A stretch of 64,000 nt of DNA from the NCBI GenBank assembly GCA_036564905.1, contig DATCOD010000194.1, forward strand, positions 7,240 through 71,239. Direction: 5' to 3'. Shown in pieces: positions 1,372 through 4,670 of the stretch (position 1 is its first letter; every line of letters begins with the position of its first letter). The stretch comes from Candidatus Limnocylindria bacterium (lineage in GTDB: Bacteria; Chloroflexota; Limnocylindria; P2-11E). Made by a program: the position numbers and the translations under genes. A model generated the notes under the pieces. The model did not search any database. It saw only the letters and a list, made by a program, of their open reading frames with translations, and had not been told where the DNA came from.

Positions 1372-2343
1372 ATGGACAGGCGGCCCGCGGTCCTGATCGT
1401 CGACGATGACCCGGCGACCTGCCGCATGCTGATGGAGCGACTCGCCGAGGATGGGATCGCGAGCGAGTCCGCTCACGACGGCGTGACGGCCCTGCGGCGT
1501 GCGATCGCGCTCCGGCCCCAGCTCATCATCCTCGACCTCGCCCTCCCGGAGCTGTCCGGCGATCAGGTGTTCGAGCGGCTGCAGGCCGATCACCGCACGC
1601 GGTACACGCCGGTCGTGTTCCTCACCGGCTCGTCACGGCGCGATGACAAGGTCCGTCACCTACGCGCCGGCGCCGACGACTACGTCACGAAGCCATTCGA
1701 CCTCGAGGAGCTCGCCGCGCGCGTGCAGACGGCGCTGCGGCGATCGCGGACGCTCGGCGGACTGAACCCGCTCTCCGGCCTCCCGGGGAACACGGCGATC
1801 TACGAGGAGATCACCGCGCGCCTCCGGTCTGGCGAGCGATTCGCCTGCCTCTACGTCGACATCGACAACTTCAAGAGCTTCAACGATCGCTACGGCTTCA
1901 CGCGCGGGGACACGCTCATCACCGAGCTGGCCGAGGCGATCTTCGGGGCCGTGGCGGCGGCCGGCGAGGACGCGTTCCTCGGCCACATCGGCGGGGACGA
2001 CTTCGTGATCCTGTGCTCCGTCGACCAGTCGGAAGCCCTGGCCGACGAGATCGTGGCGCGCTTCGGTGTCCGCTCACGTCAGCTGCACGACGCGGGCGAC
2101 ATCGCGGCCGGCGGCTACGAAGCGCCGGACCGTCGCGGGCTCCGGAGCCGCTGGCCATTCGCGTCGGTCTCGGTCGGCATCGCGCGATCCGACGCGCGCG
2201 CGTTCCCGACGGCCGCCGCGCTCGCGCAGGCGGCCGCTGAGATGAAGACGGTCGCGAAGCGGCAGTCCGGCCAGCGGGTCGCCCTCGATCGCCGTGGCCC
2301 GCGGGCGGAGTCGCGTGCAGAGGCGCATTCCCACCGGTCCTAG
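1372..2343 (+). CDS. Response regulator with receiver (REC) domain fused to a GGDEF diguanylate-cyclase domain; signature reads GGDDF
   Basis: N-terminus 'MDRRPAVLIVDDD...ILDLALPELSG...YVTKPF' is a typical REC domain. C-terminus 'LYVDIDNFKSFNDRYGF...HIGGDDFVIL' is a GGDEF domain. ATG at 1372 gives a canonical REC N-terminus; the longer ORF begins at 1309. Confidence 0.8.
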   Translation: MDRRPAVLIVDDDPATCRMLMERLAEDGIASESAHDGVTALRRAIALRPQLIILDLALPELSGDQVFERLQADHRTRYTPVVFLTGSSRRDDKVRHLRAGADDYVTKPFDLEELAARVQTALRRSRTLGGLNPLSGLPGNTAIYEEITARLRSGERFACLYVDIDNFKSFNDRYGFTRGDTLITELAEAIFGAVAAAGEDAFLGHIGGDDFVILCSVDQSEALADEIVARFGVRSRQLHDAGDIAAGGYEAPDRRGLRSRWPFASVSVGIARSDARAFPTAAALAQAAAEMKTVAKRQSGQRVALDRRGPRAESRAEAHSHRS

Positions 2344-2459
2344 ACTCGCTCCTCGTGGACACCCTCGAGCGGCCCGCGACCGTCACACAGTCGCAGCGGA
2401 CCGAGATCGAGGCGCAGCGCCAGGCGACGAGCGAGACCCGCCGCGCGACCGTGCCGGCG

Positions 2460-4670
2460 ATGGAAGCGCTCCTCTATCAGCCCATCCCGGTCCTCGACCA
2501 CGGCTTCATCCGGGTGATCGACTACATGGGCGACGACGCGGCGGTCGTGCAGGCCGCGCGAGTGTCGTACGGCGCCGGGACGAAGAAGATCCGCGAGGAC
2601 GCGGGCCTCATCAACTACCTGATGCGTCACCGGCACACCTCGCCGTTCGAGATGTGCGAGATCAAACTGCATGTGAAGCTGCCCATCTTCGTGGCCCGCC
2701 AGTGGATCCGGCACCGGACCGCGTGCCTTGCCGGTGACACGAAGCTCTGGTTCGACCTCCCAAATGGGCTCAAGCGGGGCGGTCGCGCAATCAGCTCGAC
2801 GACCATCGAGCGGTTCCACCGAGAGTGGCACGAAGGCTCGAGGCATCCGATCCCTAAGAAGAAGCCGACCCACATGGAGGATGTCGATCCGGAGCGCTGG
2901 TATTCGGTACCCGAACTCGCCAAGCTCGTGCACCGGCGTGCGGAATCGCTGAGGAATCAGATCCGGGAGGGGTCTCTCGAAGCCACCCAGCGACCGACGA
3001 AGGACCCCCACGAGCCGCAGCTCTGGATCAAGGGCTCTGCGTGGCATGACTTCGCGAACCACACCTACATAGCGAAGGTCGATCTGCAGGACGTGCTCTC
3101 GCGCCGGCTCCTTCGTCACTGCGACGAAAGCAGCGGTGAGATCGACGACACGCGCGTCCTGGACGTATGGGAGACCGGCGTTCGGCCCGTGTTCAAGGTG
3201 ACGCTCGCCAATGGGTACTCGGTCAAGATGACCAAGGATCACTTGTGCCTGACTTCGGATGGCTGGAAGACCTTGGAGCAGGCCACCGGAGTTCACATGG
3301 GCATGGGCGGCGGCGCTACATGGCGTGAGGATTCTCCGCGGTTCGCCGTGAATGGCGTACCGGCGCACCACGACCGCGAATGGCTACAAGCCCGCCGGGC
3401 CGAGGGGCTGCAAGTCCAAGCGATAGCCGACCGCGCAGGTGTCTCGTATCACACGATCAGAAAGGCGTTGCAGCGCCACGGGCTGCAGTTCACTGCGAAA
3501 GAGAAGGCGAAGTTCTCCGGGCTAGCCCAGCGCGGCCAACGGCGAACCTTCGCTCGGCATCAGCACAGTCCCGAGGGCCTCGCTCGGATCCGCGTGGCTC
3601 GTTCTGGCCGAGCTTCTAACTTCTGGAAGGGCGGAGTCACTGTCGAACGACAGCTGATCGGCGCATGGACGACAAGTCACGCCCGGGCGGTCCACGAACG
3701 GAACGGATTCAGCTGCGTCATGTGTGGCGGCAAGGGTCGATTGAATGCCCACCACGTCGATCCGGTCTGGCATAACCCTGAGCGATCGCGCGAGATCGAC
3801 AACCTGACGACCCTGTGCGGGCGTTGCCACCGGGACATCCATCGGATGAATCTGGAACTGGCGCTGCTTGAGGAGGCGCAGAGCGGAGACGTCGCGTCGT
3901 TCTGGCAGCGACACGCAACGTCCCAGCCACGGCACCCAGCGAAGCGCAAGCCCCCCGTGCGGAAGCTGGTCCGCGGTTGGTCGGCCGTTGAGCGCATCGA
4001 GTACGCAGGCGAAGAAATGACCTACGACATCGAGGTGCTCGGTCCGGATCACAACTTCGTGGCGAACGGGTTCATCGTTCACAACAGCGTGAACGAGTAC
4101 TCGGCTCGCTATTCGATCCTCGACCGAGAGTTCTACGTGCCTGAACCGGAACAGCTCGCCGTCCAGGCGACATCGAATCGGCAGGGACGCGGAGAGGTGA
4201 TCACCGGGGAGCGCGCCCAGCAGATCCTTAGCGTCCTCAGGCAGGACGCGGACAGGATGTATCGCGACTACGAGAGCCTCTTGAACGAGACCGCTTCAGG
4301 CGAGGTGCTCGTGCCGGAGGAGCAGGGGCTGGCACGCGAGCTCGCGCGAATGAACCTGTCGGTGAACTTCTACACGCAGTGGTACTGGAAGACGAATCTT
4401 CACAATCTTTTGAACTTCCTCTCGCTGCGCGCGGACGCGCATGCGCAGTACGAGATCCGCGTCTACGCGGAGGTTCTGCTGAAGGTGTTGAAGGACTGGG
4501 TCCCGCACACGTACTCCGCCTTCATGGACTACCGGATGGGCGCGTACGAGCTGTCGGCAAAGGGTCTCGCGGCCGTGCGCCGCTTGCTCCGTGGCGAACC
4601 GGTCGAGCGCGAGTCGACCGGCATGTCGCCGGGCGAGTGGCGCGAGCTCATGGAGACGCTCGAGCGCTGA
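2460..4670 (+). CDS. thyX: Flavin-dependent thymidylate synthase ThyX, interrupted by an in-frame intein (extein about 282 aa)
   Basis: N-extein 'LDHGFIRVIDYMGDD...YLMRHRHTSPFEMCEIKLHVKLPIFVARQWIRHRTA' followed, after the intein, by 'SVNEYSARYSILDREFYVPE'. This reconstitutes the ThyX signature RHR-X7-S (RHRTASVNEYS). Alternative longer start at 2355. Confidence 0.9.
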   Translation: MEALLYQPIPVLDHGFIRVIDYMGDDAAVVQAARVSYGAGTKKIREDAGLINYLMRHRHTSPFEMCEIKLHVKLPIFVARQWIRHRTACLAGDTKLWFDLPNGLKRGGRAISSTTIERFHREWHEGSRHPIPKKKPTHMEDVDPERWYSVPELAKLVHRRAESLRNQIREGSLEATQRPTKDPHEPQLWIKGSAWHDFANHTYIAKVDLQDVLSRRLLRHCDESSGEIDDTRVLDVWETGVRPVFKVTLANGYSVKMTKDHLCLTSDGWKTLEQATGVHMGMGGGATWREDSPRFAVNGVPAHHDREWLQARRAEGLQVQAIADRAGVSYHTIRKALQRHGLQFTAKEKAKFSGLAQRGQRRTFARHQHSPEGLARIRVARSGRASNFWKGGVTVERQLIGAWTTSHARAVHERNGFSCVMCGGKGRLNAHHVDPVWHNPERSREIDNLTTLCGRCHRDIHRMNLELALLEEAQSGDVASFWQRHATSQPRHPAKRKPPVRKLVRGWSAVERIEYAGEEMTYDIEVLGPDHNFVANGFIVHNSVNEYSARYSILDREFYVPEPEQLAVQATSNRQGRGEVITGERAQQILSVLRQDADRMYRDYESLLNETASGEVLVPEEQGLARELARMNLSVNFYTQWYWKTNLHNLLNFLSLRADAHAQYEIRVYAEVLLKVLKDWVPHTYSAFMDYRMGAYELSAKGLAAVRRLLRGEPVERESTGMSPGEWRELMETLER
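2724..4085 (+). mobile_element. Intein (454 aa) inside thyX carrying an HNH homing-endonuclease and an HTH domain
   Basis: Block A 'CLAGDTKLWFDL' with Cys1 at 2724-2726; block B 'KMTKDHLCLTSDGW'; C-terminal blocks 'EEMTYDIEVLGPDHNFVANGFIVHN' then +1 Ser. Asn codon at 4083-4085, Ser at 4086. Internal HNH 'CVMCGGKGRLNAHHVDPVWHNP...NLTTLCGRCHRDIH' and HTH 'LQVQAIADRAGVSYHTIRKALQRHG'. Confidence 0.85.

Follow-up and report, generated by a model that had tools for sequence, protein, structure and literature searches.

Inteins that carry an HNH endonuclease in frame have reportedly been known since Dalgaard et al. in 1997. They form a minority class: of 784 actinophage inteins, 712 carry a LAGLIDADG endonuclease and 63 are 'non-canonical', the HNH type included (bioRxiv 10.1101/2025.01.02.630785). 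In-frame HNH is there one of four non-canonical endonuclease types, spread over four host protein types that include thymidylate synthase, and is called rare; helix-turn-helix (HTH) elements are not mentioned in this preprint (Gosselin, Arsenault and Gogarten 2025, bioRxiv 10.1101/2025.01.02.630785). Here we analyse such an intein in the thyX gene of a Limnocylindria-like bacterium, on a 64-kb stretch of contig DATCOD010000194.1 (assembly GCA_036564905.1, positions 7,240 to 71,239), hereafter the window. A preliminary description, made from the letters of the window, had assigned to it an endonuclease module of HNH plus HTH rather than LAGLIDADG, and had called HNH inteins a minority, as the survey counts confirm. 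We consider it probable that the element is mobile and homes to a single site in thyX, the catalytic-motif codons RHRxx^S.NE.S.RY, as an in-frame intein with an HNH homing endonuclease; the caret marks the insertion point.

How does this intein compare with its closest described relatives? The ThyX inteins of cluster C1 mycobacteriophages were catalogued in 2016 (Kelley et al., PMC5050341). Over residues 286-454 the window intein is 31-32% identical to them, with E ~1e-10. It shares with the actinophage ThyX HNH inteins (Cane17 gp82, Gizmo gp97) the host protein, the insertion point (RHRxx^C...HN^S.NE) and an in-frame HNH domain with Cys pairs. The window element is chromosomal, whereas those of Cane17 and Gizmo reside in phages. 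The Cane17-type phage intein is also much simpler: at ~260 aa it lacks the central HTH, the NUMOD3-like array and the predicted winged HTH that the window intein carries in its N-terminal Hint lobe. The Trichodesmium erythraeum ThyX intein of InBase also lies in a bacterial chromosome; we take it to be a mini-intein without an endonuclease.

The HNH domains of the GyrB (Synechocystis/Nostoc) and dCTP-deaminase inteins have been put under PF13392 HNH_3, in the I-HmuI-like group 22 (PMC5714182). In these minority-class inteins, as in ours, HNH takes the place of LAGLIDADG between the Hint lobes. The extein differs, however, and the window HNH belongs to PF01844; the HNH_3 profile PF13392 has no match in the window. 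I-HmuI, I-TevI and other phage homing endonucleases of the HNH and GIY-YIG types consist of a small nuclease, itself non-specific, and a tethered series of DNA-binding elements (single helices, NUMOD3, HTH) by which a long target is read (Stoddard 2014, PMC3943268; PMC5714182). The window element likewise joins a nuclease to a predicted DNA-binding array, and free-standing relatives of its central module bear true NUMOD3 repeats or tandem HTH units. Unlike I-HmuI and I-TevI, it holds this array inside an intein, in the order HTH, NUMOD3-like, HNH, and adds a further predicted DNA-binding domain within the splicing domain. This last feature recalls the DNA recognition region (DRR) of PI-SceI and the accessory domains (ACDs) of LAGLIDADG inteins, in which an extra domain supplements the nuclease; the ACDs of TliVMA and PI-TkoII resemble HTH motifs (Beyer et al. 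2022, PMC8966425). PI-SceI, TliVMA and PI-TkoII are LAGLIDADG inteins, whereas the present insert is a predicted HTH_17/MerR-like winged helix that follows the first strand-helix of the N-lobe. Among the open-access papers that our searches retrieved, we found no description of HTH or NUMOD modules inside an HNH intein. As an HNH intein at the ThyX site the window element belongs to a known kind, but its architecture is richer and apparently undescribed. It is a real, only moderately unusual mobile element of a large, mostly undescribed metagenomic family, and overturns no current concept.

The ThyX intein and its inserted modules

The host reading frame encodes a precursor of the FAD-dependent thymidylate synthase ThyX, interrupted by one intein (table 1). 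PF02511 of Pfam matches it over two stretches with 167.8 bits and TIGR02170 of NCBIfam with 186.5 bits; all strings quoted in the preliminary description are found in this frame. Counted on the precursor, the intein begins with Cys124 ('CLAGDTKLW', nt 2724); it ends with 'FIVHN' (nt 4085) and splits the ThyX signature motif as RHRTA^C...HN^SVNEYSARY, with Ser as the +1 residue ('SVNEYSARYS'). Its removal joins RHRTA to SVNEYSARY and restores the signature. The spliced extein measures 317 aa; intein-less ThyX orthologues (316-317 aa, 78-84% identity) are colinear with it along 100% of its length. The intein is recognized by PF14890 Intein_splicing at 44.3 bits (cut-off 35.8), by TIGR01445 and by TIGR01443. 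An AlphaFold2 (AF2) model of the whole intein has a predicted local distance difference test score (pLDDT) of 92.3 and matches the DnaB, RecA, GyrA and DnaE mini-inteins in Foldseek with a probability of 1.00. The class-1 splicing residues are all present (C1, T170 and H173 of block B, H453-N454, the +1 Ser), and C1, H173, H453 and N454 are invariant in an alignment of 96 homologues. The intein is of the class 1 Hint type, its fold split by inserted domains. From the intact Cys1, TxxH, HN and +1 Ser we infer that all 454 residues would splice themselves out.

What kind of endonuclease has been inserted? It is a canonical zinc-type HNH domain of the PF01844 (McrA/IscB-like) branch. PF01844 matches with 30.9-33.8 bits, above its gathering score of 21.4 (E 3.9e-8 on a 178-aa segment), and is found in every one of the 63 homologues scanned; HNH-endonuclease families of PHROG match with E-values down to 8.5e-15. 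The string 'CVMCGG...NAHHVD...CGRCHRDIH' lies in frame at 3714-3842. The two Cys pairs that the preliminary description had noticed in it, C331/C334 and C365/C368, are conserved as a Cys4 set: these residues, like H343-H344, N360, H369 and H373, are either invariant or conserved to 90% or more in the two alignments, of 63 and of 96 sequences. The domain has the catalytic His, the structural Asn, the metal-binding His and the Cys4 zinc site of a beta-beta-alpha-metal fold.

Might the true endonuclease be a cryptic LAGLIDADG domain, or lie in another frame or on the other strand, the HNH match being incidental? LAGLIDADG is the commonest intein endonuclease by far, antisense and out-of-frame endonucleases have been reported in actinophage inteins (bioRxiv 10.1101/2025.01.02.630785), and long antisense open reading frames (ORFs) overlap the present intein at 2340-3371, 3522-4082 and 3677-3997, all on the minus strand. 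However, the LAGLIDADG_1, LAGLIDADG_2, LAGLIDADG_3 and Hom_end profiles give no match even at E<=10, while the HNH match is significant. The alpha-beta-beta-alpha-beta-beta-alpha core does not appear in the predicted fold, and the high-confidence model of the centre holds just a helical HTH and the beta-beta-alpha-metal HNH. Neither the antisense nor the alternative-frame ORFs over the intein match any Pfam family; such ORFs are to be expected in DNA of 71% GC, and those on the antisense strand most likely owe their existence to this composition. On profiles and predicted fold we reject this explanation, to which we leave next to no probability; the preliminary description was right in seeing no LAGLIDADG motif.

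Upstream of the nuclease the preliminary description had seen an HTH, and profiles, homologues and model all point to one. The string 'LQVQAIADRAGVSYHTIRKALQRHG' is in frame at 3408-3482. HTH_23 scores 21.0 bits on the window sequence, under its gathering score of 24.6, and HTH_38, Sigma70_r4_2 and GntR fall on the same residues; among the 63 homologues, 25 match HTH_23, at best with E 4e-7. Since Foldseek of the whole-intein model against the PDB returned Hint-domain matches only, and none for the inserts, the central part was modelled separately; in the resulting AF2 model of residues 206-415 (pLDDT 89) the HTH is built of three helices. The HNH/HTH region had been located correctly in the preliminary description, except that its in-frame start is 3339 and not 3340; the residues ~320-520 given for it are numbered on the precursor, the intein having only 454, and the region described (3340-3870) covers intein residues 206-383.

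Two further elements had gone unremarked in that description, a pair of NUMOD3-like helices and a predicted winged HTH in the N-terminal Hint lobe. The helices, 'FTAKEKAKFSGLAQRG' and 'HSPEGLARIRVARSG', lie in the linker between HTH and HNH, which also contains the motif S298-N-F-W-x-G-G, at least 90% conserved. The segment from linker to HNH aligns with the free-standing protein P0251, from its last NUMOD3 repeat through its HNH, at 39% identity (E 8e-23). True PF07460 NUMOD3 repeats occur in free-standing P0251 (88 bits) and P0266 (46 bits), fused to the same WKGG-HNH unit. PF07460 has no match in the window intein, so that, on the alignment to P0251, we label its linker NUMOD3-like only. 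With a low pLDDT of 57-81 in the whole-intein model, the linker is presumably a flexible tether.

The N-lobe insert scores 19.9 bits with HTH_17 in the window, under the gathering score of 27; its orthologues in P0065 (28.3 bits) and P0155 (30.3 bits) exceed that score, and 36 of the 63 homologues match at E<=0.01 (best E 2.8e-7). In the whole-intein AF2 model it is a beta-alpha-alpha-beta-alpha unit with pLDDT >93 that comes after the first strand-helix of the N-lobe; a deletion in the allele P0270 removes it precisely. All three DNA-binding assignments (HTH, winged HTH, NUMOD3-like helices) are predictions from homologues and modelled structure.

Table 1. Features of the thyX locus in the 64-kb window. 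Positions are those of the window; residue numbers are those of the intein unless stated otherwise.
Feature	Position	Strand	Evidence
thyX precursor ORF, 771 aa, GTG start	2355..4670	+	PF02511, TIGR02170; colinear with intein-less orthologues
Upstream mosaic extein tract with 5' half of presumed homing site	2655..2723	+	DNA identity to L014 falls from ~0.90 to 0.67-0.75 from ~60 nt before insertion
Class-1 intein, 454 aa; Cys1 2724, T170/H173 3231/3240, block F D435, H453-N454 4080-4085, +1 Ser 4086	2724..4085	+	PF14890, TIGR01445, TIGR01443, AF2, Foldseek
N-terminal Hint lobe, first part, block A, aa 1-37	2724..2834	+	Alignment with insert-less Natroniella intein and deletion allele P0270
~90-aa insert in N-terminal Hint lobe, aa 38-128, predicted excisionase/MerR-like winged HTH; HTH_17 match 2898-2987 'WYSVPELAKLVHRRAESLRNQIREGSLEAT'	2835..3107	+	HTH_17, homologues, AF2
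N-terminal Hint lobe core, aa 129-205, block B 'TKDH'	3108..3338	+	phmmer and Foldseek alignments to NpuDnaB and SspDnaB mini-inteins
Central three-helix HTH module (predicted), aa 206-255; core 3393-3476	3339..3488	+	
Linker with two NUMOD3-like helices ('FTAKEKAKFSGLAQRG', 'HSPEGLARIRVARSGRASNFWKGG') and conserved SNFWKGG motif	3489..3677	+	Conservation; alignment to P0251
HNH (His-Me finger) nuclease domain; PF01844 core 3714-3845	3678..3893	+	Zn ligands C331/C334/C365/C368; catalytic H343-H344, N360, H369, H373
Basic tail, HNH back to Hint domain, aa 391-415	3894..3968	+	Least conserved intein segment, mean pairwise identity 0.385
C-terminal Hint lobe, blocks F and G	3969..4085	+	TIGR01443; alignment to NpuDnaB intein C-terminus
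Downstream mosaic extein tract, 3' half of presumed homing site at its start	4086..4496	+	DNA identity to L014 0.48-0.75

Relatives and age of the architecture

With the intein as query, 364 proteins were recovered among the candidates scored. The 120 best of those that cover it in full are all ThyX proteins with the same intein, at 47-83% identity; most alleles measure 449-459 aa. The hosts that bear names are Candidatus Limnocylindria (the closest), Thermomicrobiales, Polyangiaceae/Myxococcota, 'Deltaproteobacteria' and Eisenbacteria. The HTH-linker-HNH module was found in 233 clusters at E<=1e-10 by HMMER among 1.84 billion representatives. Do other host proteins carry it? When domains were mapped in 150 clusters at 50% identity, the intein-embedded matches proved to be mostly ThyX inteins, those of very divergent ThyX included. 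A Pfam scan addressed the same question for all ten divergent candidates that BLAST had not recognized as ThyX: nine have a Thy1 match (one of these under the curated cut-off), while P0142 has none at E<=0.001. A metagenomic ThyX, P0256 (1058 aa), contains two inteins, one with LAGLIDADG_3 and one of the HNH/HTH type.

The modules of the intein come and go within this family. The N-lobe insert occurs in roughly one fifth of clusters, and most ThyX HNH-intein clusters are without it. At the same thyX site the intein of mycobacteriophage Cane17 gp82 (RHRSGF^CVAG...VVHN^SYNE) has HNH only, and that of Natroniella acetigena has HTH and HNH without the N-lobe insert; in the alleles P0158 and P0161 the HTH unit is duplicated. 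The same HNH also exists in free-standing proteins (P0222, P0251, P0255, P0266, P0267), accompanied either by NUMOD3 repeats or by 2-6 HTH units in tandem. That the HTH is a separable module, as the preliminary description had surmised, is seen from its 2-8 tandem copies in free-standing P0222, P0255, P0267 and P0243. P0255 (443 aa) has six units of the form 'D..WL...G.s..eIA...G.s..TI.r.l.khGi', then the WKGG-HNH unit, and P0243 (565 aa) has at least eight copies of the same unit and no nuclease. Viral HNH endonucleases of the BFVD match the central model over 185-197 of 210 columns (Foldseek E down to 9e-8), and tblastn matches from HCTV-5 and a Leeuwenhoekiella phage cover intein residues 212-376. 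Judged by these relatives, the central module seems to derive from a free-standing, phage-type HNH homing-endonuclease gene that a thyX intein captured, with DNA-binding units gained or lost over time.

Was this assembly recent? The preliminary description had taken the module for a possibly recently recombined cassette. Here we differ from it. The architecture recurs at 47-83% identity in >360 ThyX proteins of Chloroflexota, Myxococcota, Eisenbacteria and other groups, and the GC content at third codon positions (GC3) is uniform across the intein modules, at 0.74-0.80; across phyla the complete architecture is shared at ~50% identity. This uniformity and this conservation do not support a recent recombination of the cassette, and we reject it. 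Compared with L001, an 81%-identical Limnocylindria allele, the whole intein has a dN/dS of 0.09, the HNH of 0.11, the NUMOD3-like linker of 0.07, the winged-HTH insert of 0.17 and the Hint parts of 0.03-0.06, all approximate, as dS is 1.0-2.4 and near saturation. Every module with a finite value (0.03-0.17) is under purifying selection. Modular accretion did take place, as the simpler inteins at this position of thyX support, but it is ancient.

The family, large, diverse and well conserved (>360 proteins, 233 clusters), provides a natural series at one site: HNH; HTH and HNH; winged HTH, HTH, NUMOD3-like helices and HNH; and deletion derivatives. With it one can test how accessory DNA-binding modules are recruited and how much specificity each module adds, which bears on models of intein persistence and on the engineering of modular nickases and nucleases. 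It also corrects annotation, public records labelling fragments of these genes just 'HNH endonuclease'.

Evidence for mobility of the element

If the intein is mobile, are there alleles without it? There are 119 uninterrupted ThyX proteins (P0271-P0389, 316-317 aa) with 78-84% identity to the spliced extein, and several belong to named Limnocylindria. One of the 119 lies on a 41-kb contig, L014, which runs colinear with the window for 6.1 kb (81% DNA identity) and whose thyX is uninterrupted (317 aa). It shares the neighbours as well: a FecR-domain protein, a response regulator-GGDEF protein, thyX, a protein of the histone-deacetylase family and Yip1. From the shared neighbours and the colinearity we conclude that L014 is the orthologous empty site. 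The presumed target site of the fused extein reads GCCCGCCAGTGGATCCGGCACCGGACCGCG^AGCGTGAACGAGTACTCGGCTCGCTATTCG / ...CGGCACCGGACCGCG^AGCGTGAACGAGTAC..., and the empty site of L014 reads ...CGGACGCGCACTGCC GCGGTGAATGAG....

The extein is mosaic around the insertion point. In the N-extein the DNA identity to L014 is 0.85-0.93 until ~60 nt before the insertion point; over the ~410-450 nt downstream of that point it is 0.48-0.75 and then partly recovers towards the 3' end (0.70-0.87). At the protein level, intein-containing and intein-free alleles are indistinguishable in the N-extein and in the last 50 residues. Over extein residues 161-205, in windows of 15 aa, the identity is 0.37-0.52 between the two groups, as against 0.65-0.92 within them. 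The 35 residues round the site (106-140) are 100% identical to a distant intein-containing allele and at most 89% identical to the empty alleles of the element's own lineage. This mosaic is consistent with a 3'-skewed co-conversion tract reaching from about -60 to about +410-450 nt round the insertion.

The history of the intein also appears to differ from that of its gene. Its GC3 is 0.77, compared with 0.943 in the N-extein, 0.866 in the C-extein and 0.90-0.93 in the neighbouring genes. Between hosts whose exteins are 20-40% identical the intein identity stays at ~51%, and in 70% of pairs it exceeds that of the extein. The dS between the two closest intein-containing alleles (ours and L001) is 1.40 for the intein, 0.49 for the N-extein and 0.94 for the C-extein; since the first is about three times the second, the intein and the 5' part of thyX do not appear to have a single shared history.

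Nor is the element always intact. Three deletion derivatives sit in almost identical host genes: P0009 has lost the HNH core, P0118 the linker, and P0270 (522 aa, the closest extein relative) both the winged HTH and everything from HTH through HNH, by two independent deletions that leave a 205-aa mini-intein. Derivatives that lose the HNH and HTH modules keep the splicing domain, so that the DNA-binding parts are dispensable to the host. The stages to be expected from a homing cycle are present among these sequences, which is evidence for an element that is currently or was recently mobile.

How might such a cycle run? The Hint domain would cut out the 454-aa intein by the class-1 pathway and ligate the ThyX halves. 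The released intein, or the precursor, would act as a site-specific endonuclease on intein-less thyX. With its single beta-beta-alpha-metal active site the HNH would nick the DNA; a double-strand break would take a second event. Specificity would come not from the small nuclease but from the predicted DNA-binding modules, namely the three-helix HTH, the two tethered NUMOD3-like helices and the winged HTH of the N-lobe, which would read an extended target. Repair with the intein-containing allele as template would then transfer the intein, along with part of the extein beside it, to the allele that was cut. If cleavage or resection took place downstream of the insertion point, that would fit the 3' skew of the mosaic tract.

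Several points weigh against active homing as we propose it. To our knowledge, no intein-borne HNH endonuclease has been characterized in vitro. The mosaic tract overlaps a part of ThyX that varies naturally, and a search for the donor of its C-extein portion among the distant intein-containing alleles found none, the best of them reaching 57% compared with 60% for empty alleles of the own lineage. Intein and extein identities correlate (r 0.73), which indicates that much of the inheritance is vertical, and the strong conservation of the element could also reflect a role beneficial to the host. The central HTH is so saturated in dS that it yields no dN/dS. In the window sequence the HTH, the winged HTH and the NUMOD3-like helices each fall below curated Pfam thresholds, and a profile of the N-lobe insert (alignment A4) meets only chance-level matches among PDB sequences (histone H2A, a designed protein; best E 0.3).

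Two other explanations have therefore to be weighed. The intein might be a decaying relic that still splices, whose HNH is inactive and which is passed on vertically only until it is lost. The degenerate alleles P0009 and P0270 belong to the same clade, and the sampled empty alleles of the lineage differ at the target (RTR..A^A, RHRVA^N) and could be uncleavable, which would end local homing. Against this, the HNH catalytic residues and zinc ligands are all intact here and invariant across the family, the HNH evolves at a dN/dS of 0.11, the architecture is of full length, and there are neither frameshifts nor stops. We think decay improbable.

We are more sceptical still of domestication, in which the nuclease and the DNA-binding modules would be kept for the benefit of the host and not for homing, either to make splicing conditional on DNA or stress and so gate dTMP synthesis, or to let the excised intein serve as a DNA-binding regulator. 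Regulatory inteins have been discussed before (works cited in bioRxiv 10.1101/2025.01.02.630785). The intein interrupts the catalytic motif of an enzyme of DNA-precursor synthesis, so that the unspliced precursor is presumably inactive; dN/dS is low in every module tested, the length is uniform across phyla and the correlation of intein with extein identity fits such a role as well. Against this, most close relatives are intein-free at the syntenic locus, and near-identical host genes contain derivatives without HNH and HTH that keep the splicing domain. The flanks are mosaic, the intein is compositionally foreign, and a role as sensor would not require the catalytic residues of the nuclease to be invariant. 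We therefore judge domestication very unlikely and hold to a homing intein.

A more far-reaching version of the homing cycle, which we consider possible and yet doubtful, would make this an uncharacterized type of intein homing enzyme. Recognition would be spread over the winged HTH, the transposase-like HTH and the NUMOD3-like helices, the cut would lie at a distance from the insertion point, and the host would answer in an arms race by diversifying the motif and the +1 residue (RHR to RTR; Ser to Ala or Asn) as target-site immunity. Distant cutting, if true, would account for the strongly 3'-skewed conversion tract.

At the motif itself all intein-containing alleles read 'QWIRHRTA^SVNEY'. 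The intein-free alleles of the same lineage are unusually diverse over the catalytic ThyX motif and the +1 position (2690-2723 and 4086-4115), with variants such as 'QQIRTRTA^AVNEY', 'EWVRHRVA^NLNEI' and 'QFLRHRVA^SANEV', and most have Ala or Asn in place of the Ser that the intein requires. This diversity of the empty alleles may represent target-site immunity. Scans for tRNA genes and for Rfam families at gathering score found none anywhere in the 64-kb window. Its overall GC content is 70.9%, with a dip to ~63% over thyX and the intein (2600-4600).

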